A stretch of 33,967 nt of DNA from an uncultured Candidatus Sumerlaeota bacterium (GTDB lineage Bacteria; CAYMEV01): positions 62,001 to 95,967 of the forward strand of contig CAYMEV010000014.1 in assembly GCA_964389675.1 (NCBI GenBank). The letters run 5' to 3'. Each line of letters opens with the position of its first letter. Positions within the stretch are counted from its first letter, which is position 1. The notes beneath the pieces are model-generated. The model searched no databases, was not told the origin of the DNA, and saw only the letters and a list, made by a program, of their open reading frames with translations. Positions 9,515-27,205 of this stretch are shown in pieces. The position numbers and the translations under genes are program-made.

Positions 9515-12500
9515 TTGAAAAAAGTATTAAGCCATGCTAATTTATACAGCATGATAAAGCTAAAACTTCCAACCAAATTTATAACAAAGGCCGCAGTTTT
9601 CGTTTTTATCAGCATTATCTTTCTATCTCTATCTCTTTATGCCGGGGAAGGCAGTAATGACCTTACGAGAGAAATACTGAAAGAGAAATACGGCGATAAT
9701 GCTGAAGATATCCTTAAAAATCCGGGATTGGGTCATTACCTGGATGCAGAGGAAATATTAAAGCCCCTTCCTGAGAAGGGTGATTCAAGCAAAGCACCGC
9801 CATCAGGCACTGTAAGCCCTGTTGCTGAATTTGACCCTGCTGAGGCAGTCCTTATAAGGTATCCTCTCGGGATACCGTATTCATTGATAGCAGACCTTTC
9901 AAACCATACAACAGTGATAACGCTTGTATCAAGCTCAAGCCAGCAGAGTACAGTTGAATCCCTTTACAGCTCCAACGGTGTAAACCTTGCAAACTGTGAG
10001 TTTGCAATCTATGATACTGATTCTTACTGGACAAGGGATTACGGGCCATGGTTCATCAGGGATGGTGAAGATGACATAGCCATAGTTGACTTTGAATACA
10101 ACAGGCCCCGTCCTGATGACAATGATGTACCCTTCAATATGTCCAGTTACCTTAGTATGCCGTATTATTACATGAGCCTTTATCATACAGGCGGAAACTA
10201 TATGAATGACGGCTACAGTATCGCAGCATCAACCGACCTGGTCTATGAGGAGAACTACAGTATGACCGAAGCTGAGGTTGACGCCATGATGCAGGATTAT
10301 CTCGGGGCTGATACCTATCATGCTGTTCCCGACCCGAATAATACCTATATAGACCATATAGACTGCTGGGGAAAGTTCCTTGCTCCGAACAAGGTCCTTA
10401 TCAGAAGGGTCCCTACAAGCCATGCCCAGTATGATGAGATAGAGGCTACTGCAGATTATTTTGCAAACCAGGTATCTGCATACGGGACTAAATACAAGGT
10501 TTACAGGGTTGACACACCCTCAGACCAGCCCTATACCAATTCCCTTATCCTGAATGATAAGGTTTTTGTTCCTATTACCGGATCGCCAACCTATGACAAT
10601 ATGGCAATTGCAGCCTATCAGGATGCCATGCCGGGTTATGAGGTGGAGGGTTATACAGGATCATGGGAGAGCACTGATGCCCTGCACTGCAGGACTCATG
10701 AGATTGCAGACAGGGGAATGCTCTATATCAGGCATTATCCCCTCATGCCTTATCAGCCTGTGCAGTCCGGTTATACTGTTACAGCTGATATAATCCCATA
10801 CAGCGGATCAGCCCTTACTTCAGGTGACCTGAAGGTATATTATCAGACAGAGGGCTCTTCAAAGTTCAGCTATGTCCTGCTTCAGCATGTTTCAGGCAAT
10901 TCATATGAAGCAACTATACCTGCCACACTTGAATCACAGACCATGAGCTATTACATTACAGCAGGCGATGCATCCGGCAGGACAGAGAATCATCCATATA
11001 TCGGCCCGGCAGACCCCCATCAGTTCATGACCATTGAATCAGATATTGTATCACCGGTATCGCCTCTGGATTATGAGAGTGATATCTCTATTGAACTGGA
11101 TGAGCTATGCTGGTATTTTGATTCAACTGTGCTTGAGATTGAGGGATTCAATATATATTTAAGTACTTCGCCTGACTTTTCTACAGGTACATATACAGAT
11201 TATATGGCATTTAGCGAAAGTGTAGATGATACATACTGCTACAACACTGAAAGCTATGCTTTTGAAACAAGTAAAACATATTACTGGAAAATAGGCCTGG
11301 TGACGAATGATATGGAGATTGACTGGACTGATGAGTGGAGTTTTGTTACATCATCCTATGCGCCTCCGGCAAACCTCTCTGCATCAACCATCTACAGCGA
11401 CAGGATAGAACTGGGCTGGGATGTTCCCGGGACGATGCTGAAGGGAATATCAGTATCGGGATATAATGTTTATAGAAGCACACAGTTAAATGGCACATAT
11501 ACCAAGATCAACTCAAGCCTTGTAACTACTCTGTATTATACGGATTACTCGGTATCCTGCCCTGAGACATGGTATTATGCTGTTACAGCTGTCTACAGTG
11601 ACAGCATGGAGAGTGCTTTAACAGATGGCGTTATGGGAATGACATCAGAGGGAACATATTATGCTCTATCCTTCATGTCAGACCCTGAGTCAACAGGTGC
11701 GATATTTACCGGTGCAGGAGATTATACAGAGGGAGCACCTGTGGATATTTCTGTAAATTCCCCGGCCGGATACAGCTTTCTTTACTGGACAGGTGCTTAT
11801 GCAGGGCTTCTTGATGATGCCTATTCACCTTCCGCTTCATTTACAATGCCTGCTGATGATGTTATAATGACTGCAGTCTTTGAGGAATCCCAGTATGACT
11901 TAAAGGCTGTTATAGGGCTTGAGAACCCTGCTTATGAAGGAGTATGGCTGTGGAACTATTCAGACAGCAAGGCAAAAGGCTCAGTATGGACAAATATCCT
12001 GTCAGGCCAGACTGCAACCGGGATTTCAGCAGGAGACATTACCGGAGACGGCAACCTTGAAATAGTGGTCAATTTTCAGGACTACGGTTTATGGTACTAC
12101 ACTACCGCAGGCGCATCATGGGTTAATATCATGTCAAATTCAGTTACATGCACAGACTTTGCGCTTGCTGATACAAATTCAGGTACCCCTGTCCAGGTAA
12201 TAGCATCGTTCTCAGGGAACGGGCTTTATAAATGGGAATATTCAAAAGGTACCTGGGTAAGCATAATAGGCCAGACAGCTACAATTGTGACAGCTGCCGA
12301 CATCAACAGGGACGGGACTGATGACCTTGCCCTGGCATTCAGCGGTGTTGAGGGTATGTTCACCTATGATTTCACAACGCAAACATTTACGAGGCTTGTC
12401 ATGGTAAGCCCTTCCCAGATGACATCAGATGATATTACCGGTGATGGCTATGACGAGATCGTATGCGTATTTGACGGTTTCGGCATCTACCTTGTAAGGA

Positions 12501-12940
12501 ATATACCGGATAAGAATGCCGGATCTCAAAAAGAACAGCTTTATGATATTGACCTTATAAATGATATACCCGAAAGCCGTAAATGGTACTCCAGGGACGG
12601 AAGCAGCAAAGGAATACAGTTCAACAGGATCACATACGGCTCCCCTGATGAAGGCCACCTTATAGGGACAGGCGATATTACGGGCGGGACAGGATCAGAG
12701 ATCATAATGACCTATAACGGTGATGCATACAGCTACTGCTATGAGACCCTTTCATGGTCTATCATGGTTTATGCTCCTTTCAACAGAATAATATCCGGAA
12801 AATTTACAAACTCTTCATGGGATGACCTTATCGTGTGCGACAGCTCCACAGGAAGCATATACCTGAAGAACGCCTCACTGGGTTCATGGGAAATGCTCCT
12901 GCAGTCAGGCCATACCCATGCGATGGCGCCTCTGGAATAA
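9515..12940 (+). CDS. Secreted agmatine deiminase / Porphyromonas-type peptidyl-arginine deiminase family protein with Ig/FN3 and FG-GAP-like repeat domains
   Basis: WTRDYGP, RPxDN, GGN, HID, YTNS and ALHC catalytic-type motifs; APPANLSA...GYNVYRS FN3; GDITGDG repeats. Start uncertain (TTG 9515 or ATG 9551). Confidence 0.85.
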   Translation: MKKVLSHANLYSMIKLKLPTKFITKAAVFVFISIIFLSLSLYAGEGSNDLTREILKEKYGDNAEDILKNPGLGHYLDAEEILKPLPEKGDSSKAPPSGTVSPVAEFDPAEAVLIRYPLGIPYSLIADLSNHTTVITLVSSSSQQSTVESLYSSNGVNLANCEFAIYDTDSYWTRDYGPWFIRDGEDDIAIVDFEYNRPRPDDNDVPFNMSSYLSMPYYYMSLYHTGGNYMNDGYSIAASTDLVYEENYSMTEAEVDAMMQDYLGADTYHAVPDPNNTYIDHIDCWGKFLAPNKVLIRRVPTSHAQYDEIEATADYFANQVSAYGTKYKVYRVDTPSDQPYTNSLILNDKVFVPITGSPTYDNMAIAAYQDAMPGYEVEGYTGSWESTDALHCRTHEIADRGMLYIRHYPLMPYQPVQSGYTVTADIIPYSGSALTSGDLKVYYQTEGSSKFSYVLLQHVSGNSYEATIPATLESQTMSYYITAGDASGRTENHPYIGPADPHQFMTIESDIVSPVSPLDYESDISIELDELCWYFDSTVLEIEGFNIYLSTSPDFSTGTYTDYMAFSESVDDTYCYNTESYAFETSKTYYWKIGLVTNDMEIDWTDEWSFVTSSYAPPANLSASTIYSDRIELGWDVPGTMLKGISVSGYNVYRSTQLNGTYTKINSSLVTTLYYTDYSVSCPETWYYAVTAVYSDSMESALTDGVMGMTSEGTYYALSFMSDPESTGAIFTGAGDYTEGAPVDISVNSPAGYSFLYWTGAYAGLLDDAYSPSASFTMPADDVIMTAVFEESQYDLKAVIGLENPAYEGVWLWNYSDSKAKGSVWTNILSGQTATGISAGDITGDGNLEIVVNFQDYGLWYYTTAGASWVNIMSNSVTCTDFALADTNSGTPVQVIASFSGNGLYKWEYSKGTWVSIIGQTATIVTAADINRDGTDDLALAFSGVEGMFTYDFTTQTFTRLVMVSPSQMTSDDITGDGYDEIVCVFDGFGIYLVRNIPDKNAGSQKEQLYDIDLINDIPESRKWYSRDGSSKGIQFNRITYGSPDEGHLIGTGDITGGTGSEIIMTYNGDAYSYCYETLSWSIMVYAPFNRIISGKFTNSSWDDLIVCDSSTGSIYLKNASLGSWEMLLQSGHTHAMAPLE

Positions 12941-14286: not shown

Positions 14287-14402
14287 AAGAATTTATTATA
14301 GCACCTTTATGAAGGTCTTTCAGGAAAATATATATAAGGGGCTTCCCTGCTTGAATATTTAAATAAAAATAATAAATATAAAAATTATTATGGAGGTTTA
14401 TT

Positions 14403-15516
14403 ATGTCATTAATTGGCGGTGTTTCAAGTAATGTTATATCGAGGGCAGTACCTGATCTGAATCCCATTGCGGACTCGATAAAAACTGCCGGTTCAAGCCA
14501 GGCAGGGCCTGCATGCGGATTATCATCAATTAACACAAGCATGGGAAATCTGTTTGAAAAAGCTCCTGATATGTCAAAAACCCTGCAGAACAGTATCTCC
14601 AACAGCAGTATAAGGCCTTCCACCGCAGGCACGGTTCAGAGGCCATCAGTACTCGATTTTCCCGGAAGTTTAAAACCCTCAGGTGTTACAATTTCTCCGG
14701 GGCAGGTACCAGGAGGTGTGACCATATCACCTGATATAAAGCCTCAGGGTGTTACAATATCCCCGAATGCAAAGCCTCCTTCAGAGGGCATCAATCAGGC
14801 CACGCTTACCATTACAGCTGAAACAATGCCGTCAAGAGCAACTATAGCTCAGGACCGCAAGCCTGCAGGGGTTACGATCTCCCCCCGTATGCAGCCTTCA
14901 GGAGTTACAATATCCCCTCACATGAAGCCTCAGGGCGTTACAATATCCCCGAATGCAAAGCCTCCCTCAGAGGGCATCAACCAGGCAACGCTTACCATTA
15001 CAGCTGAAACAATGCCGTCCAGAGCAACTATAGCTCAGGACCGTAAACCTGCAGGGGTTACGATCTCCCCCCGTATGCAGCCTTCAGGAGTTACAATATC
15101 CCNNNNNNNNNNNNNNNNNNNNNNNNNNNNNNNNNNNNNNNNNNNNNNNNNNNNNNNNNNNNNNNNNNNNNNNNNNNNNNNNNNNNNNNNNNNNNNNNNN
15201 NNCTCACATGAAGCCTCAGGGTGTTACAATATCGCCCCATGTAGCAAGGACACTCCAGAATACGGCTGCCCAGGGATTAATGGAGCAAAGAACAGGGGTT
15301 ATGAGCCAGTCCATCTCTGATAATCTGCACAGGCTTGCTGACAGAGCAGAAAAAACAGAACAGAGTCTAAGAAGCATGGACGAAATGGAACATATGAACC
15401 CTGGCGAGCTGCAGAGAATAGTTCAGGCATTGCAAGGGCTGGATATCATCTACAGTAATTTCATGAAGAATCTGATGGACATACAGAATGCTGCCATAAG
15501 GAGTCTGAAGCTATAA
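14403..15516 (+). CDS. PxGVTISP tandem-repeat protein with T3SS needle (SctF)-like C-terminal helical hairpin; one gene spanning the assembly gap
   Basis: GGAGGT RBS. Removing the 100 Ns joins the 14403 and 15208 ORFs in frame (337 aa). C-terminus is NPGELQ...SNFMKNLMDIQNAAIRSLKL. The gene is well supported; the function is inferred. Confidence 0.65.
14673..15237 (+). repeat. Nested coding repeats: 33-bp (11-aa) units inside 186-bp (62-aa) units
   Basis: Nine visible PxGVTISP motifs; 186-bp copies start at 14739 and 14925. Confidence 0.95.
15103..15202. other. Assembly gap (100 N)
   Basis: Run of N inside the tandem repeat. Confidence 1.
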
Positions 15517-15522
15517 GCGCCT

Positions 15523-17610
15523 CTAATCCTGCCAGAAGGATTCAGGCGCTGAAACCGGAGCAAATCCTGTGATCTTTGCATCTGATGACCTGTGTATGCA
15601 TATCATATTAGCAGATATAATACCGGGAAAAACATTCTCTTTGTTCCTGAAGTAGTTATCAGGGCTGTATAAAAATGGCAGATGCCAGTAAAGGTCATAT
15701 CCAAGCGACTGCAGGTAAGCAATAAGGGCAGGTGCCCTGCTTCTGCGGTCATTCTCAACATATAAAAAAGGCTTATGCTCTTTTATTGTCCTTTCAGCAC
15801 CCTTCAGCACTTCAAGTTCCATCCCCTCAACATCTGCTTTTATCAGCGTGCATGAAGAAAGCTTCAGGCTGTCAATGGTGCTTGTTTTGACAGGGGTTCC
15901 TGTCGGGACTTCCTGGAGCTCAACCCCCCCGAAATTGTTGTCCTGGCTGTAATCAAGACAGGGAAGATACAGCATGCCTTCTTTACTGCCCAGTGCTTCG
16001 CTGAAGCATATTGCATTCTTCCGGTTATTAAGCGCAAGGTTATTGCAGAGCGTTTCAAAAAGGGTTTTTTGAGGCTCGTAAGCATAAACAGAGCCTTCAT
16101 CCCCAACGATTTCAGAAAATACAAGTGTATGAGGTCCTATGTTTGCACCAGCCTCAACCACTGTACTGCCTTTATGCAGGACCTGACGAAATATGTGGCA
16201 CTCATCCTCTGAATATTCGCCATAGAGCATAAGGCTTCTGCCTACAACTGTGTCAAACCTGTTTGTCCACATCAGGCCATGCCTGGTTCGGAGGAGTATA
16301 TTTATGCCATCTTCAGCTAATCTGTATTCGTGCGGTTCTTTCAGCCTGATCTGTTTATTATCATTCATCAGCCTGCCGGCTATTTCCCGGAATACATCTT
16401 CCCATTCCTGAGATGCCTTTCTTCTAAAAAGCTTCATGGATGGGTACCATGGTGTCCTTTCACCCTCTATCTGCCATACCCAGAAAGGAACAGTGCCCAG
16501 GACATTCCAGACAGGGACACCCATAGCCCCTGCAATATGTGCTACTGCGGTATCAGGGGATATCAGAAGGTCAATATTATCAAGTACAGCAGATGTATCG
16601 ATGAAAGAACAGCCATTGTTGTCCAGGTCTTTACCAAGGTCAGTGATCTCCGGTTTCAGTATCCCATTCTCGATCTGATCTGAACCAGGGCCTTTCTGCA
16701 ATGAAATAAGCTGAGTATTATGCAGGTGCATAAGGGGCTCCATGGAAAGCAGGGGAAAGCTTCTCAGTAAATCGCCATGGAATTCAGGATTGCCCTGCCA
16801 GGCAATGCCTATTTTGAAGCCCTCATACTTATCAATCCGTTTTTTCCAATAATCTGAAAGGTTTCTATCAGCAGAAAGGTAGGGAACTGTTCCCGGAGTG
16901 GACTTTATATCTTCACCAAGTACAGCAGGGACATCCTGGAAACTGCAGAAATAATCACAATTCAGTTCTTTTTCATCATGGGATATCAGCCTGTCTATGC
17001 CCAGGCAGTTTTTAAGCAGGCATAATAATGACCTGCTGCAGGCTACAACAGTTGTGCACTTATAGATGCTTTTAAGGATCGATGCATACCTTGCAAAGAG
17101 GACAGTATCTCCGAGCCCCTGTTCCGCATATAGAAGTATGGTCCTGTTGTCAAGGTTCTCGCCATTCCATTCAGGCTTTGAACAGGGCGGGAGCTTCATG
17201 CTTTCAAGCTTCCAGCGCCATCTGTATTCCTGCCATCCTGTCCTGAAACTGCCTCTAAGCAGGTGAATGATCCCTTTATATGTGTGGCCGTATGCATCGG
17301 AGGGGTCTATGGAAATAATCCTCTCATAGCATTCAAGGGCATCGTCATAACTGCCGTTCCAATAAAGCACATCCGCCTTGTTCCTGTATGCCCTTATAAA
17401 ATCAGGCTGGATTGAAACAGCCCTGTTGAAAAAATCAATTGCCTCTTTTGGCCTGCCTGTTTCATAATACAGCAGGCCCATATTATTCCATGCATCAGGA
17501 TTTTCTTCATTTTCTTTTAAGACTGACATGTAGATCTCTTCAGCCTGGAGAAAATTTCCTGACTGCTGTAATTTCAATGCCTTCTGAAGAATTTTTTCTG
17601 ATTTATTCAT
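15523..17610 (-). CDS. TPR + GT-B (GT9-like) glycosyltransferase + FkbM-family methyltransferase fusion
   Basis: N-terminal TPRs; GWQEYRWR, EQGLGD, GIAWQGNP, SLQKG, DTAVAHIAGAMG, TPWYPSM; then VEAGANIG, YEPQ, KADVEGMELEVLKGA. Confidence 0.9.
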   Translation of the reverse strand: MNKSEKILQKALKLQQSGNFLQAEEIYMSVLKENEENPDAWNNMGLLYYETGRPKEAIDFFNRAVSIQPDFIRAYRNKADVLYWNGSYDDALECYERIISIDPSDAYGHTYKGIIHLLRGSFRTGWQEYRWRWKLESMKLPPCSKPEWNGENLDNRTILLYAEQGLGDTVLFARYASILKSIYKCTTVVACSRSLLCLLKNCLGIDRLISHDEKELNCDYFCSFQDVPAVLGEDIKSTPGTVPYLSADRNLSDYWKKRIDKYEGFKIGIAWQGNPEFHGDLLRSFPLLSMEPLMHLHNTQLISLQKGPGSDQIENGILKPEITDLGKDLDNNGCSFIDTSAVLDNIDLLISPDTAVAHIAGAMGVPVWNVLGTVPFWVWQIEGERTPWYPSMKLFRRKASQEWEDVFREIAGRLMNDNKQIRLKEPHEYRLAEDGINILLRTRHGLMWTNRFDTVVGRSLMLYGEYSEDECHIFRQVLHKGSTVVEAGANIGPHTLVFSEIVGDEGSVYAYEPQKTLFETLCNNLALNNRKNAICFSEALGSKEGMLYLPCLDYSQDNNFGGVELQEVPTGTPVKTSTIDSLKLSSCTLIKADVEGMELEVLKGAERTIKEHKPFLYVENDRRSRAPALIAYLQSLGYDLYWHLPFLYSPDNYFRNKENVFPGIISANMICIHRSSDAKITGFAPVSAPESFWQD

Positions 17611-18205: not shown

Positions 18206-19657
18206 CTATTCTGCTTCACTTAATGGTATCCCCAGTGCTTCAGCAACGCCTCTGCCATAAGCCTCGTCGGCTTTCATGCAGTTTTTGATATGCCTTATCT
18301 TTATATGCTTTGGGGCATCGCCCATATTGCGCGCTGTATTTTCAAAAAGGATTTTTTTCTGTTCAGGGCTCATGAGGTTAAACAGGGCTCTGGGCTGAGA
18401 GTAGTAATCATCATCCTCCCTGTGGTTCCACCGCCCTGCTGCACCTTCAAGGGGCAACGGGGGTTCTGAAAAGTCCGGCTGTTCCTGCCATTCTTCATAG
18501 CTGTTAGGCTCATAACCCAGTGTGCTGCCGTAATTGTCGTCAACTCTCATGGCTCCATCCCTGTGATATGCATGGAACGGGCATTTCGCCTTATTGACTG
18601 GGATTAGGTGATGATTTACCCCCAGCCTGTACCTCTGGGCATCGCCATAGGAGAAAAGCCTTGCCTGAAGCATCTTGTCAGGAGAAAACCCGATACCCGG
18701 GATTATGTTTGCCGGATTGAAAGCCGACTGCTCAACATCAGCAAAATAATTCTCAGGGTTCCTGTTAAGCTCCAGCACTCCTACTTCATGCAGGGGATAA
18801 TCACCATGGGGCCAAACACGGGTTACATCAAAGGGATTGAAAGGCACTTCTGAGGCCTGTTTTTCAGTCATTACCTGAATGGACATGGTCCAGCGCGGGA
18901 AATCCCCCTTCTCAATGCTTTCAAAAAGGTCCCTCTGGTGGCTTTCCCTGTCTTTTGAGATAATTGCCTCCGCTTCCTGGTCTGTCAGGTTCTTAATGCC
19001 CTGTTGTGTTTTCAGGTGGAACTTGACCCATACCCTCTCATTTCTGCTGTTTATCATACCGAAGGTATGGCATCCATATCCGTTCATGTGCCTGTAGGAA
19101 TAGGGTATTCCCCTGTCGCTCATGGTGATTGTGACCTGATGGAGAGCTTCCGGCAATGAGGTCCAGAAATCCCAGTTGTTCCTGGCACTGCGCATATTGG
19201 TTTTGGGGTCTCTCTTTATAGCATGGTTCAGATCAGGGAATTTCAGTGCATCCCTTAGAAAAAAAACAGGGGTATTGTTACCCACGAGGTCCCAGTTTCC
19301 CTCTTCGGTATAAAATTTTATTGCAAACCCCCTGATATCCCTTTCTGCATCCGCGGCACCTCTTTCTCCTGCTACAGTGGAGAACCTTACAAATACACCT
19401 GTCTTCTTGCCAATTTCTGAGAACACTTTTGCCCTGGTGTATTTAGTTATATCATGGGTGACAGTAAAATGGCCGAATGCGCCTGATCCCTTTGCATGCA
19501 TCCTCCTCTCAGGGATTACCTCCCTGTCGAAGTGTGCAAGCTTCTCAATAAACCATGCATCCTGAAGAAGCATTGGGCCTCTTTTGCCTGCAGTCTCAAC
19601 ATTCTGATTATCAGGAACAGGAGCTCCTGTAATCCTGGTAAGTTTTTTCTTGTCCAT
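18206..19657 (-). CDS. katA: Monofunctional small-subunit heme catalase
   Basis: [17 protein letters not shown] active site, [21 protein letters not shown] proximal Tyr motif. Confidence 0.97.
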
Positions 19658-20052
19658 TATTTTCCTCCTTTTTTACATTTATTGCAAATTCCATAAAAAT
19701 ATATTGTAAAGCCTGTTATACTGTCCTTAATATTTTCCATTGCGCTCTTTAATATGTCTTCAGTGAAGGGAAGGCTAAAGTCTCTTGCTGACCCGCACTC
19801 ATTGCATATAAAATGATGGTGAGGATCAGCCACTGCATCATAATGGTCAGCTTTGTCCCCGAAATCCCTTCTGGTAATCCTTCCTTCCTCAATTAGTATC
19901 TCCAGGTTCCTGTATATATTGCTTAGGCTTATATTAATATCCTTTCCTCTTAGATAGGTGTAGATATCAATAGCTGTCGGGTGTGTATCAGATTTTCTTA
20001 TGCAGCTGTAAATTTTCTCTCTGTGAGAGCTTTTTCTTCTTTTTGTATTCAT
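19657..20052 (-). CDS. perR: Fur-family peroxide-sensing repressor
   Basis: HPTA, YRNL, YD...[18 protein letters not shown]; stop overlaps the katA start (TAATG). Confidence 0.8.
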
Positions 20053-22839: not shown

Positions 22840-25800
22840 CTATGGCATCAGAGGGTTTTTAATTGCTTCTGCTGTTTCATCAGCCTGTATTAACAGATAT
22901 TCTGCCTTTTTCTTATTACCCATTTTTCTATAAGCTTCTGACATCCTCTTTAGAATGAGAATGCAGAATCTTTTATCACTGATATCCATAAGGAGCGGTT
23001 CTGCTTTAATATAATATTCTAATGCCTTCGCAGAATCTTCTGTATCCTCATAGATCATTGCTGTATAGCACAGGGCCTTGCAGTATTCTTCCGTGTATTG
23101 TGACTTATCAAGAAGCTTTAAGGCTTTTTTACAGTAATTCATAGCGATATCATATTTTTTCTGCAGATAATACAGGTAGCCTATGTCCCTGTCTATTATA
23201 CCGATGCTTGCCGGGTCTTTCATTCTGACAGCATATTTCCTTGAATCCTGATAGCATTTCATGGCCTTTTTGTAATCTCCCAGCTTTAAATATATCTCAC
23301 CCATGTTTTCCAGATATATGCTGCAACCTAAAATATTTCCAATATTTTTGCATGTTTCTGCTGCTTTATTTGAATATTCCAGAGCTTTGTCATATTGTCC
23401 GATATCTGTATAGATGCTCCCTAAATTTCCAGTACTGTTAGCATACATGTATTTATCCCCGATCTCTTCGGATATCTTTTTCTGATCTTCATAAAGCCTG
23501 ACAGCATTTTCATAATCATAGGATTTTTCATATAGTGCAGCTATGTGGCCGAGCGATCTTCCGTATCCCTTACGGTCTCCGATTTCCTTGAATATATTTT
23601 TTGATATTTCAAAATAATCCATTGCCTTATGCAGTTCATTCCTTTTGCTGTAAATATTTCCCATATTACCCACAGACATTGCGGACAGTTTTTTATAGCC
23701 GATTTCCTTGCTTATTCTGTACTGGGCTTCAAAGCATCTTAAAGCGCTGTCCAGTTTTCCTAAAGCCTTGTATAAAACTCCGATATTTCCGGTATTAACG
23801 GCGTATAGCCTCTTATTGCACGTTTTTTTAAATATCCTGCCGGCTTCCTTGTAATACTTCATGGCTTCCCTGTATTCATTTCTATATCTCAGTATATTGC
23901 CGATGCTTCCAAGAGTTGATGCATATGATGTTTCATTCTCAGGATCTTTGATTAGTGTCAGTATCTCATGAAAGCACTTGTATGCCTTATCAAGATCAGC
24001 AATTGCGGTCAGTGCATTTCCCTTTGACCTGAGATTCATTATATAGCCTTTCATGTCTGAAAGACCGGAAGATATATTAAGCCCTTTTTCTGAAAGGCTC
24101 AGTGCCTTATCAATATCCCCCCTCATGATTGATATCTCTGAAAGGTTCATATAAGCAACTGCCATCTGATCCCTGTAATCCCATCTTTTTGCCATATCAA
24201 GGGCCTTAATATATTTTTTTTCAGAATCCTTCAAATTTCCGTCAATAACGTACAGATAGCCGATATTACACAGGGTTTTTATGACCTTTTCAATATCTGC
24301 CTCTCTATCCAGGTATTTAATCAGGCGCGTGTAATAGTATATTGCCTTCGAATTCTGGTATTTGGCACTGGTTCCTTCAGCAGCCATGTCCAGGTAGAAC
24401 CTGGCTTTTTTATTGTTCTCAGCCCTGTCATAATGGTCAGCCAGCTCCTCATAATGATTTTCAAGATCATTCTCATACAGGCTTTCAATGACTTCACCTG
24501 CTAAATTATGGATCAGTCTCAATCTTTCCTTCAGCTGTATATTATATACAGTATCCCGTATTAAAGCATGATGGAATATGTACTTAAGTTCATTCAGCTT
24601 ATGCCATACCTGCTCCTTATCACCTTTTGTCAGTATATCAGCAAGCCGGTACTCATCAGAATTCTGCAGATTATGCAAAATTCCCCTCAGAACCTTAACT
24701 GCAAATTCCCTTCCAAGGACTGACGCGGTCTTTATTATCTCTTTGAGCTCAAAGCTGAGCTTGTCAATCCTTGATATAACTATCTGGCTGATCTTTTGCG
24801 GTATTTCCTCAATACTGGCAGTCAGTCTCATATTCTCATCAAGCAGATTGTTTTCCTTAATATACAGTATGATCTGTTCCAGGAAAAACGGGTTGCCGTC
24901 GCATTTACCAGTTATGAACCTCCTGGTTTCCCTGGGGATTTTTCTGCTTTGCAGTTTTGCCTCAAGGAAGGGTGTTATATCGCTTGTCAGCATTTTCCCT
25001 ATGCTTATCCTTTCTGTTTCTGTTTCTTTGTCAGGCCTGAAAAACTCGAATAAGGATCCGTCATCTGAAGGCCTGCAGGCTGAAATGATGGCAATGGGAA
25101 AGCCTTCAATATTATTGATGAGCCTTTTTATCAGTTTCAGGCTGTCCTCATCAATCCACTGGCTGTCGTCAATGATAAGGATAAGAGGGTTCAGGAGCCC
25201 TAAAGACAAAATGAAATTTTTCAGTGCTATTATGGTATTGTCGAATTTTCCCCTGGCATCAAGCATTGTTATCAGTGAGTCCTCATATTCCAGGCCCAGA
25301 AGAGATGCAATAATGGATTCCGTCCTTATAAGCTCTGACCTGATTTCTTCATTATCTGTTTTCTCGATATGTTTTTCGTATTCAGCCCTGAACAGTTTTG
25401 TGTTCTCTCTTTTCGTGTTTTCAGGGTTCTGGCTGAAATACCTCTCCAGGAAGTATATAAAAGGGTTGAATGATTTCTTTAATATCTCATCGCATGGTAA
25501 ATACAAAAAGGAAATTTTGTAAGCAGAACAGGTTTTTGCTTCAGCAGTTCTCCTGAAATGCTCCAGAAACCTGGTCTTGCCTATCCCTGCAGGGCCGTCA
25601 ATATAGATTATGCCGGCAAACCTGCCATTATATACAGGTTCTAACGCCTTATCCAGAAGCATTAATTCCCTTTCCCTGCCTATGAACGGGTCGCCGTGGT
25701 ATATCTCATTATACTGCTTGATCTGCCCCTCCAGGCTGAAAGTCCCAATATCCCTGTTAAAGCCTTTATACCTGTAGGTCCCGCGTTTTACTGCATCATA

Positions 25801-26907
25801 TCTGGTTTTAAGATTATTGAATAAATTCTCATCTATTAGTATCTCACCCCAATCTGCTCTGGTCATCAGCCTGGATGAAAGGTTGACCATGCTTCCGATT
25901 GCTGTATATTCGGCTCTAAGAGGGGAGCCTAAAAAGCCGGTGAAGGCCCTTCCTGAGGTCATTCCTGCCCGGAAGCAGAAATTTGGGATATCTCTAAGGC
26001 CCAGCATAAAATCAGATGCCCTTCTCAGCATATTCTCCCTTGCAACAGGAGCACCGAAAAGCACAAGTATTACAGCGCCCTTGTCCCCGAAAGCAGCTCT
26101 GTTGAAATATCCACCGTACCTGTAAACCATCTCTGTTATCTTTTCTATGGCCTTTAAATACCTGCCCTTCAGCCTGAAATTTACCATGCATGAAACAATA
26201 TTCCTGAATTCGCCTTTTTCTTTAAGCTCTATCACCTCGCGCGGGAAAAATCTCTGAAATATGGTGCTATCTGATCCTTCACACCCGTTATAATGGTCTG
26301 GCTCATAATTTTTTTCTGCAGTATCTGAGATATCAAGGATAAAATAATCCTGGCCAATCCTCCTGCATTTATCATGCCCTATTCTGTCATAATAGCTTCT
26401 GTCAGCTATTATCTGCATGCTTTCTGCAAATCCCTGCGCATCAGCGCTCCTTTTTACCGGGTCTCCGGAAAAAAGGAAAGTATCATAATCCTTTCCCCTT
26501 ATAATACGGTATTCTGACCTGCCGAAAGACATGCCTGCTTTGACATATATTGCAAATCTTCCATATTTTGTCTCAATTATAGAGTTCTTTTCTATAAAAT
26601 TAAAGATCATTGCTGCAGAATTATATGAATAAACAGGGCTTTTTACATGGAAAAAGGCCGTAAATGCATCTCCTTCAAAAGTTGATATAAATCCCTTATG
26701 ATTTTGAATAATGCTGATACATGGAGAAAAGATGCGGTTGATGATGCCGGTGAGGACCTCAGCCCCTTCTATGCCATGGGACATAAGCTTTTCGGTGATA
26801 TCAGTGAACCCCTTTATATCTATCGACATTATATAGCCTGTGATCCGGCCTTTGCTTATATTCTGCCTGTATCTGGAGCATATAAAACCAGGAAGGAGGT
26901 TATACAT
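22840..26907 (-). CDS. Tandem class III nucleotidyl cyclase + STAND AAA ATPase + TPR protein (soluble adenylyl cyclase-like)
   Basis: SIDIKGFT, FEGDA, GDKG, VNLSSRLM; FIGREREL, Walker A GPAGIGKT, Walker B IIDDSQW, GNPFFLEQ; long TPR array. Start at MYNLLP (26907) is supported by the paralogous fragment at 31012. Confidence 0.92.
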   Translation of the reverse strand: MYNLLPGFICSRYRQNISKGRITGYIMSIDIKGFTDITEKLMSHGIEGAEVLTGIINRIFSPCISIIQNHKGFISTFEGDAFTAFFHVKSPVYSYNSAAMIFNFIEKNSIIETKYGRFAIYVKAGMSFGRSEYRIIRGKDYDTFLFSGDPVKRSADAQGFAESMQIIADRSYYDRIGHDKCRRIGQDYFILDISDTAEKNYEPDHYNGCEGSDSTIFQRFFPREVIELKEKGEFRNIVSCMVNFRLKGRYLKAIEKITEMVYRYGGYFNRAAFGDKGAVILVLFGAPVARENMLRRASDFMLGLRDIPNFCFRAGMTSGRAFTGFLGSPLRAEYTAIGSMVNLSSRLMTRADWGEILIDENLFNNLKTRYDAVKRGTYRYKGFNRDIGTFSLEGQIKQYNEIYHGDPFIGRERELMLLDKALEPVYNGRFAGIIYIDGPAGIGKTRFLEHFRRTAEAKTCSAYKISFLYLPCDEILKKSFNPFIYFLERYFSQNPENTKRENTKLFRAEYEKHIEKTDNEEIRSELIRTESIIASLLGLEYEDSLITMLDARGKFDNTIIALKNFILSLGLLNPLILIIDDSQWIDEDSLKLIKRLINNIEGFPIAIISACRPSDDGSLFEFFRPDKETETERISIGKMLTSDITPFLEAKLQSRKIPRETRRFITGKCDGNPFFLEQIILYIKENNLLDENMRLTASIEEIPQKISQIVISRIDKLSFELKEIIKTASVLGREFAVKVLRGILHNLQNSDEYRLADILTKGDKEQVWHKLNELKYIFHHALIRDTVYNIQLKERLRLIHNLAGEVIESLYENDLENHYEELADHYDRAENNKKARFYLDMAAEGTSAKYQNSKAIYYYTRLIKYLDREADIEKVIKTLCNIGYLYVIDGNLKDSEKKYIKALDMAKRWDYRDQMAVAYMNLSEISIMRGDIDKALSLSEKGLNISSGLSDMKGYIMNLRSKGNALTAIADLDKAYKCFHEILTLIKDPENETSYASTLGSIGNILRYRNEYREAMKYYKEAGRIFKKTCNKRLYAVNTGNIGVLYKALGKLDSALRCFEAQYRISKEIGYKKLSAMSVGNMGNIYSKRNELHKAMDYFEISKNIFKEIGDRKGYGRSLGHIAALYEKSYDYENAVRLYEDQKKISEEIGDKYMYANSTGNLGSIYTDIGQYDKALEYSNKAAETCKNIGNILGCSIYLENMGEIYLKLGDYKKAMKCYQDSRKYAVRMKDPASIGIIDRDIGYLYYLQKKYDIAMNYCKKALKLLDKSQYTEEYCKALCYTAMIYEDTEDSAKALEYYIKAEPLLMDISDKRFCILILKRMSEAYRKMGNKKKAEYLLIQADETAEAIKNPLMP

Positions 26908-27205
26908 AACTGCCTGATCCTCTAATAAAGGATTTCTCAGCATATTTAACTATGAAAAGAAACGCCATAACTTATATAATAAACTCTGGTAAGGCTTGTT
27001 GCAATACTTTATTGCTAAATTGCAAAAACTTTCTTTTATATGTGCAGTAATTTGACTAATAGAATCTTAGATTGCTTCCATCAGGAGATGCCAGAATAGA
27101 TACTGCATTTTAGCCCTGAAATATTTTAATTCCAGGCAGGGATATTTAGGTTGAAATTTCATTCTTATGGAATTAATATCTACAAAAATAAGTAAGGGGG
27201 ATTAT

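Follow-up and report, generated by a model that had tools for sequence, protein, structure and literature searches.

What a type III machine can touch depends on its needle, tip and filament proteins, and nearly all knowledge of these comes from cultured pathogens. According to the available part of one account (PMC10333785), the N-terminus of the needle subunit SctF points outwards in the needle, tip proteins (SctA) bind SctF as SctF binds SctF, and EspA extends the needle as a filament. We have analyzed a stretch of 33,967 nt (the window, whose coordinates are used below) from the genome of an uncultured Candidatus Sumerlaeota bacterium from sediment (G000, 3.57 Mb in 58 contigs, 93.8% complete; C2, C3, C21 etc. 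are its contigs). A gene at 14403–15516 of the window (strand +) codes for a protein in which a Pro/Thr/Ser-rich repeat is followed by a predicted needle-like helical hairpin. Judged by its sequence, it belongs to the needle superfamily as a new, extended form, which has an N-terminal domain specific to the lineage and a repeat that varies.

With SctF (YscF, MxiH, EscF; PF09392, TIGR02105) the protein shares a gapless C-terminal helix pattern with Q, K and D, a helix-loop-helix predicted with low confidence, the lack of a Sec signal, and a genome with a non-flagellar type III secretion system (T3SS). It differs in size (at least 336 residues plus an assembly gap, and 205 in the shortest ortholog, against about 70–120 in SctF), in the ~90-residue N-terminal domain and variable repeat placed before the hairpin, and in a turn that is not conserved and lies 3 residues nearer the conserved helix. 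Besides, the gene is not beside needle chaperones, the protein is under every curated cut-off, and the genome has a separate short needle gene. By analogy with SctA/EspA (PF03433), it may be a second, longer subunit binding and extending the needle end, as the available text of PMC10333785 describes for these proteins; the repeat-poor ortholog (205 aa) and a paralogue (204 aa) are about the size of EspA (192 aa). Unlike EspA, it is encoded outside any translocator operon, and the functional likeness is one that we only infer. Flagellin is alike by description, as an axial substrate of the T3SS whose terminal helices are conserved and whose middle is variable and exposed at the surface, and profile similarity of SctF to FliC/FlgL is reported by Abby and Rocha in the available part of their paper (PMC3459982). 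Here the differences are that no flagellin domain was found in G000 and that the N-terminal domain is unlike the N-termini of needles.

The C-terminal tail resembles environmental needle proteins

The last ~45 residues of the protein very probably share a common origin with the C-terminal helix found in needle proteins from a group of environmental T3SS lineages. We picked six reference needles by gene context, i.e., located between sctL and sctI/sctJ and/or adjoining the gene of a TPR chaperone. Three of them, of 113–119 residues, adjoin sctL, with sctJ and sctN in the run and, in the first two, also sctI (G192, L062; G023, L063; G343, L061). Another, of ~73 residues, is found as two tandem copies within a T3SS cluster and adjoins a TPR chaperone (G207, L054), and those of G376 (L059, 112 residues) and of G000 itself (98 residues) are directly 5' of a TPR chaperone gene. 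The C-terminal profile of the family of our protein (five sequences) matched these six needles in hhalign at 96.7% (E 4.3e-10, score 54.3), against a mean of 10.6 for 100 column shuffles (sd 2.3, maximum 16.9) and 10.7 for the reversed profile. The three target-type sequences alone reached 91.7% (E 7.6e-7), and the family tail against a set including YscF and MxiH 93.6%. The six context-chosen needles, for their part, scored 24.8 against YscF/MxiH/EscF (shuffle maximum 13.8). The homology of the tail to needles is thus transitive, via the divergent environmental proteins, because its direct comparison with YscF/MxiH/EscF is not significant. The sequence-only reading of this DNA had called the tail needle-like; this holds for environmental needles under shuffle control, and does not extend to a significant direct match to the canonical ones.

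A hidden Markov model (HMM) built from YscF, MxiH and four sub-threshold PF09392 proteins, with no family sequence in it, placed the 98-aa needle candidate (E 2.2e-4), a paralogue of our protein (0.011) and the protein itself (0.23) at ranks 1–3 of the 12,485 open reading frames (ORFs) of G000. Over the last 41 residues, 26 sequences including canonical needles align gaplessly with common Q, K and D positions. Among 11 sequences including YscF and MxiH, Q and D are invariant and K nearly so, and the three positions are retained in all six family members. The earlier observation that the NP turn is ~3 residues nearer the conserved block than in a canonical needle (PrgI in that reading, YscF here) was reproduced both by hhalign and by the gapless anchored alignment.

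Curated models see little of this. PF09392 gave no match at E <= 10 in the whole of G000, and for P0002, the 205-aa ortholog, the values were E 0.27 and 11.9 bits (cut-off 29.4), over profile positions 4–70 of 71 and at the extreme C-terminus. The lack of a Pfam match says little in this lineage, since the same model largely misses context-validated needles too (of five tested, one gave E 0.13 and four gave no match). Sub-threshold PF09392 matches of 23–26 bits appeared in 4 of 401 genomes, sited at the C-termini of open frames of 111–269 residues. A profile of the family plus these proteins detected needle-like tails in 20 of the 401 genomes, as well as in database proteins of 170–572 residues; the six reference needles are among its matches.

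The genome has a complete T3SS and a separate probable needle gene

A search of the whole genome for an export apparatus, which the sequence-only reading had named as a check, found one complete non-flagellar T3SS (sctV plus sctD, I, J, L, N, O, P, Q, R, S, T and U). There is one FHIPEP gene, which passed the SctV model (749.6 vs. a cut-off of 692.25) and failed the FlhA model (615.9 vs. 772.1), and one FliP gene. A cluster on C3 (~97300–110700, L003) contains sctD (FHA type), a sigma factor gene, sctI (just under cut-off), sctJ, a FliG_M-like gene, sctL, N, O, P, Q (with FHA), R, S, T and U. We also noted two family-2 glycosyltransferase genes, one shortly after sctU on C3 and another directly after sctV (C1:161941-166000, L001).

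The needle of this system is likely the product of a 98-aa gene (C21:757-1053), directly 5' of the gene of a TPR protein whose best models are the LcrH/SycD, SctY and CdsG chaperones. Compared with the congeneric genome G001, the needle is 96% identical, the TPR protein 69% and the third product of the operon, of 108 aa, 56%. Since G000 has this needle gene beside a TPR chaperone, the protein of the window is an additional extended paralogue and not the needle, a role for which it had been considered until the C21 gene was found. The gene had been described as an orphan. It does lie apart from the apparatus genes, but it is not unique, as the same genome has the 98-aa needle gene with its chaperone and a 204-aa paralogue.

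Over the 401 genomes, the needle-like profile matched in 20 and SctV was above cut-off in 14, with an overlap of 9. Leaving aside the six training genomes, the overlap was 5, with 14 and 10 of 395 (Fisher 6e-6, a value computed over related genomes, which are not independent). Both genomes known to carry the family, G000 and G001, also carry a T3SS.

The gene, its repeat and its family

The gene starts at 14403 (MSLIGGVSSNVISRA...) and stops at 15516; 15322–15516 are its final 64 codons plus the stop, and the protein ends in ...SNFMKNLMDIQNAAIRSLKL. The ORF list splits it into 14403–15320 and 15208–15516 (the 3' frame is open from 15205), because a scaffold gap of 100 N sits within the tandem repeat. 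As the same repeat unit is read on either side of the gap we take it as one gene, and the apparent frame change across the gap arises from the arbitrary gap length. The interruption also makes the length a lower bound, at least 233 + 103 residues plus the missing repeat units. The contigs of four public DNA runs all end within the repeat, none spanning it, and they showed no copy-number variant.

Tandem Repeats Finder reported periods of 33 (2.8 copies) and 186 (2.0 copies, 94% matches). Nine xKPxGVTIS units are visible, eight before the gap and one after, and the two 62-residue higher-order units are identical at 173 of 183 nt, with codon differences that are synonymous in seven cases and non-synonymous in two. 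The long Pro/Thr/Ser repeat and the helix-NP-helix tail are thus present as had been described from the sequence (direct reading, Tandem Repeats Finder), and the Ser/Gly-rich N-terminus, which is rich in Ser/Ile/Val at its start, has no Sec signal: no hydrophobic segment was found, the maximum Kyte-Doolittle 19-residue mean being 0.83. The last ~85 residues are predicted as helix-loop-helix. Table 1 gives the coordinates.

Table 1. Features of the gene and of related loci in G000 (window coordinates unless a contig is named)
Feature	Position	Strand	Remarks
Promoter-like site ATAGCACC-N17-GGAAAAT	14298..14329	+	degenerate copy, 3/14 positions differ
Ribosome-binding site GGAGG	14392..14396	+	6 nt 5' of ATG, direct reading
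N-terminal family-specific domain, residues 1–89	14403..14669	+	conserved in orthologs and 204-aa paralogue family; no signal peptide or membrane segment
Pro/Thr/Ser-rich repeat 5' of gap	14670..15102	+	8 xKPxGVTIS units, two 62-residue higher-order units
Scaffold gap, 100 N	15103..15202	.	within repeat
Last repeat unit HMKPQGVTISP	15205..15237	+	3' of gap
Helix 1 of C-terminal hairpin, predicted	15262..15375	+	from AlphaFold2 model of P0002, helix 121–158, pLDDT ~39–60, mapped via alignment
Loop with NP turn (MDEMEHMNP)	15376..15402	+	NP in 2/3 orthologs; absent in G001 ortholog and 3 paralogues
Helix 2, SctF-like C-terminal helix	15403..15513	+	Q, K, D positions common with needle proteins; hhalign query 25–69 of 70
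Stop TAA	15514..15516	+	end of convergent neighbour gene 6 nt beyond
204-aa paralogue	C2:237207-237821 (L011:10208-10822)	-	shares the end domains of the protein
Likely needle operon	C21:757-1835 (L036)		98-aa needle gene, 139-aa TPR protein, 108-aa family-less protein

The family is very small. HMMER with the 102-aa tail against 1.84 billion representatives gave three matches, its own fragment, P0002 and one spurious TPR protein; P0002 is 79% identical to the protein of the window and has only two repeat units. A word-index search from P0002 retrieved no protein other than itself, and the whole-family profile against PDB sequences gave a best E of 0.25. G000 is in fact very isolated: of 400 relatives searched one is congeneric (G001), and the others among those listed are related at the domain level only. 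G001 has an ortholog in the same gene order, and there too the repeat is interrupted by a gap in the assembly. A paralogue of 204–207 aa is present in each of the two genomes; it lacks the repeat and has the N-terminal ~90 residues and the C-terminal domain in common with our protein. An alignment of the N-terminal domain (A10) has 22 invariant columns across four sequences, and its profile found only P0005, P0004, P0002 and P0008 in a 5.8-billion-protein index (proteins of 168–2000 residues), the last being a further paralogue-type protein. Against the N-terminal parts of needles this domain showed no significant similarity.

Between G000 and G001 the flanking genes are 57–75% identical, the paralogue 87% and the needle 96%, compared with 57% for the N-terminal domain of our protein and 36% for its tail, so that it is the fastest-evolving gene of the compared set. 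The number of repeats also differs sharply among close relatives (two units in P0002, at least 9 here). A variable repeat number together with near-identical repeat DNA would agree with an exposed spacer of variable length.

The AlphaFold2 model of P0002 had a mean pLDDT of 46.6 and a pTM of 0.24. It contains the hairpin (helix 121–158, loop 159–167, helix 168–204), with a pLDDT of only about 39–72. Foldseek with this model gave no match to the PDB at E <= 0.001. In the wide VIA-align search, the best Z was 7.0, for designed helical bundles, which is below the meaningful level for helical proteins, and there was no needle among the 50 matches listed. The model being poor, the fold searches are no evidence either way.

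A putative promoter motif shared with the T3SS genes

We inspected the upstream regions of eight genes fixed in advance and defined a motif after seeing them. Seven of the eight contain TTAGCA(A/C)C, a spacer of 16–17 bases and nGA(T/A)AAT. Because of this post hoc definition, the counts of the exact motif deserve more trust than the rest. TTAGCAAC-N16/17-nGATAAT occurs three times over both strands of G000 (7.1 million positions), 29 nt 5' of the needle gene, 75 nt 5' of the TPR gene heading the sctV operon and 98 nt 5' of the 204-aa paralogue. Two sites have one difference, one of them preceding a 483-aa Pro-rich repeat protein on C32, and a site with two differences lies 35 nt 5' of sctI. 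The needle gene, the sctV operon and the paralogue are connected through this putative promoter, which ties the paralogue to the T3SS.

The closest solved relative of the sigma factor of the T3SS cluster is FliA (E 5e-26), and we take the CGATAA-type -10 element of the motif to fit the sigma-28 consensus. The T3SS appears to be under the control of a FliA-type sigma factor acting through the motif. The likeness to the sigma-28 (FliA) flagellar regulons lies in this -10 element and in the presence of a FliA-like factor inside the T3SS cluster; the difference is that the putative regulon would serve a non-flagellar T3SS in a genome without flagellin. The paralogue with the exact promoter is divergent from an anti-sigma-factor antagonist (STAS) gene (L011:11035-11379), and the pair is kept in G001. 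Partner-switching control of the T3SS sigma factor by way of this STAS gene is conceivable.

The gene of the window has a more degenerate copy. At the matching place the G001 ortholog has TTAGCACC-N17-TGAAAAT, with two differences, and both blocks are kept between the two upstream regions, the surroundings having diverged. The background per 220-nt region is 3.8e-2 for sites with up to 3 differences and 3.3e-3 for up to 2. That this gene itself is under the motif is suggested, not strongly, by these data.

The C32 protein (C32:18701-20188, L064:1202-2689, strand -), found through the promoter alone, has 483–495 aa and long Pro-rich repeats (…HVGGQN.PPSPPP…), and its G001 ortholog is likewise interrupted by an assembly gap. 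It is the best match of the A10 HMM in G000 outside the profile's own two genes (E 0.016). Together with its G001 ortholog it scored 21.6 in hhalign against the N-terminal domain (shuffle maximum 17.4). Its tail is not needle-like and gave nothing significant against the family or against needles. The N-terminal likeness and the promoter are therefore a hint that the N-terminal domain may be a shared export or chaperone-binding module, and the C32 protein is a candidate for a further T3SS substrate.

Extended needle-like proteins in other genomes

Similar proteins are found elsewhere. In T3SS-bearing genomes, the same needle-like helix forms the end of proteins of 170–620 aa, which are often encoded in tandem (L056/L057, L052/L053, L047, P0006-P0014), and many of them carry a second motif upstream (…VLRESY…EDL…). 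In G293 (L047) an extended needle-like protein is encoded directly before lcrH-like and yopB-like genes; in the Yersinia operon it is tip genes that occupy that place before lcrH and yopB. G376 (L052/L053, contig C47) has two extended needle-like proteins at 8–13 kb from sctV, and G101 (L056, L057) has tandem sets of proteins of 500–620 residues with the needle-like tail. These three cases support a structural role for the extended proteins. A needle-like tail is also found in P0010, of 170 aa, labelled 'Myxococcales bacterium'. In the full-text literature, supplements aside, we found nothing describing extended needle-like proteins of uncultured bacteria, Myxococcus needles or sigma-28 control of non-flagellar systems, which is weak evidence that none of this has been published.

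Neighbourhood of the gene

The absence of T3SS genes from the window, stated in the sequence-only reading, was confirmed for the proteins scanned, none of 18 being of this type (15 window ORFs and three from other loci; 14 of the 29 window ORFs of at least 80 aa, the gene under study among them, were left out of the scan). The gene has no needle-chaperone or translocator neighbours, while the 98-aa C21 gene does adjoin a chaperone.

The convergent neighbour (15523–17610, strand -) codes for 695 aa with N-terminal TPR repeats and an FkbM methyltransferase domain, and in the middle there is a faint heptosyltransferase-like match (residues 333–379, E 3e-4). The pairing of the two genes is kept in G001. 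That this protein might modify the Ser/Thr-rich repeat is pure speculation. Further away, 9515–12940 (+) codes for 1141 aa that include a signal-like start, a Porphyromonas-type peptidyl-arginine deiminase (PPAD) domain, an InlB-B-repeat-like domain and FG-GAP repeats (69% identical in G001). A gene at 22843–26943 (-) codes for a 1367-aa STAND-like signalling protein that combines part of an adenylate/guanylate cyclase domain with an AAA_16 ATPase and numerous TPR repeats. The region 18209–20052 (-) contains a catalase gene with a same-strand Fur-family regulator gene upstream, a PerR-like arrangement; the genome is otherwise rich in 4Fe-4S proteins.

Proposed role and alternatives

The interpretation that we put forward, and to which we give about an even chance, is that the gene makes an extended SctF-superfamily protein for the single non-flagellar T3SS of the genome, where this protein would dock on or join the needle and display its N-terminal domain and repeats. 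It would be exported by the T3SS, the non-hydrophobic Ser/Ile-rich N-terminus and the ~90-residue domain acting as signal and chaperone-binding region. The needle-like helix-loop-helix would then dock on, or co-assemble with, the SctF needle. On the outside, the N-terminal domain would be displayed together with the variable Pro/Thr/Ser repeats, perhaps as a spacer, adhesin or variable surface. If the protein joins or caps the needle the repeats should be outside, because the N-terminus of needle subunits points outwards in the part of PMC10333785 cited above. The parts of this proposal do not have the same strength: the protein is probably a T3SS substrate, and that it is an assembled needle-associated subunit is a guess at even chances or somewhat below. 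Of the original proposal of a needle- or filament-type subunit, the profile similarity of the tail and a complete T3SS in the genome were both found; assembly and display are what we infer.

Several observations weigh against this interpretation. Pfam and NCBIfam gave no relevant family match on either half of the protein (E <= 10 for PF09392), and the direct scores of the family tail against YscF and MxiH, with or without EscF, were 16.1 and 14.1, not significant. The same was true for EspA of E. coli O145 (hhalign 10.9 and 12.4) and there was no match to PF03433, a model on which EspA itself scores 85.7 bits. The NP turn is present in two of the six family members and is missing in the G001 ortholog and the paralogues. 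A tail identity of 36%, against 96% for the needle, between G000 and G001 is unlike a core conduit subunit. The gene is surrounded by unrelated ones (the PPAD-like protein, a 4Fe-4S protein, the TPR-methyltransferase) and its own promoter match in G000 is weak (3 differences, background 3.8e-2). G000 has two secretins, one of PilQ type and the other of no assigned type, and a BLAST search of its ORFs with the tip, translocator and gatekeeper proteins of Ysc and LEE gave no match, a null result that is weak because such proteins evolve fast. Two proteins of the wider needle-like set, P0011 and the G176 ORF in its long reading, start like Sec signal peptides.

The alternative that best survives, serious although we think it rather unlikely, is that the protein is exported by the T3SS as cargo or as a regulator and does not polymerise. 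The helix would in that case engage the needle chaperone, the export gate or the needle end, and the protein could control polymerisation or length, serve as a plug, or be secreted as an adhesin or effector. Cargo or host-facing proteins would be expected to evolve fast, as this tail does. A weak likeness in the N-terminal domain connects the protein with the C32 protein, which lacks a needle-like tail and has a promoter with one difference, and this combination suggests one export module on different cargoes. The remote locus, the weak promoter copy and the signal-peptide-like starts of the two members of the wider set also keep it a serious rival. However, the K, D and Q positions are kept in all six members, which a simple docking tag would not require, and the extended proteins of other genomes sit at the positions of structural parts (G293; G376, at 8–13 kb from sctV).

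A role outside the T3SS, as a lineage-specific coiled-coil or surface protein resembling needles by helical periodicity and composition, appears improbable to us. The missing curated family match and T3SS neighbour would agree with it, as would the generic helical bundles of the structure search (Z 7.0, with no Foldseek match at E <= 0.001) and the weak matches of the paralogue to many coiled-coil families. Yet shuffled and reversed profiles, which keep the composition (and, when reversed, also the periodicity), score 10–17 against 54. The family-free HMM puts the needle candidate, the paralogue and the protein first among all ORFs of the genome, the exact promoter motif of the paralogue is otherwise found only before the needle gene and the sctV operon, and a T3SS is present in both family-bearing genomes. 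That the protein is the main needle subunit, a reading that the failure of PF09392 to find any needle in G000 at E <= 10 would favor, is hardly credible given that the 98-aa C21 gene adjoins an LcrH/SycD-type chaperone, is 96% conserved in G001, has the exact promoter and has relatives in G192, G023 and G343 that sit between sctL and sctI/sctJ.

Returning to the needle-associated subunit, a wider and more tentative picture, which we consider unlikely to hold in full, is that of a decorated needle extension. Two or three paralogous long subunits (our protein, the 204-aa paralogue and perhaps the C32 protein), under the sigma-28-like factor of the cluster and with a shared N-terminal export module, would be mounted on SctF. 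Their hypervariable, strain-variable repeat would perhaps be modified by the neighbouring TPR-methyltransferase (glycosyltransferase-like) protein. The needle-like tails on proteins of 170–620 residues would then mark a class of T3SS parts that has gone unrecognised in environmental bacteria, among them lineages described as having no needle.

Significance

Curated models appear unable to recognise the needles in one group of environmental T3SS lineages (one weak PF09392 match in five), and in these lineages the needle-like tail appears to be reused on much longer proteins. Myxococcales-type systems are reported without SctF in the available part of PMC3459982, and the tail of P0010 bears on this published absence. 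A recognisable sigma-factor promoter may serve as a handle for finding T3SS substrates in an uncultured organism. If true, the decorated extension would be a flagellin-like solution, with a conserved core and a variable modified surface, in a non-flagellar system.

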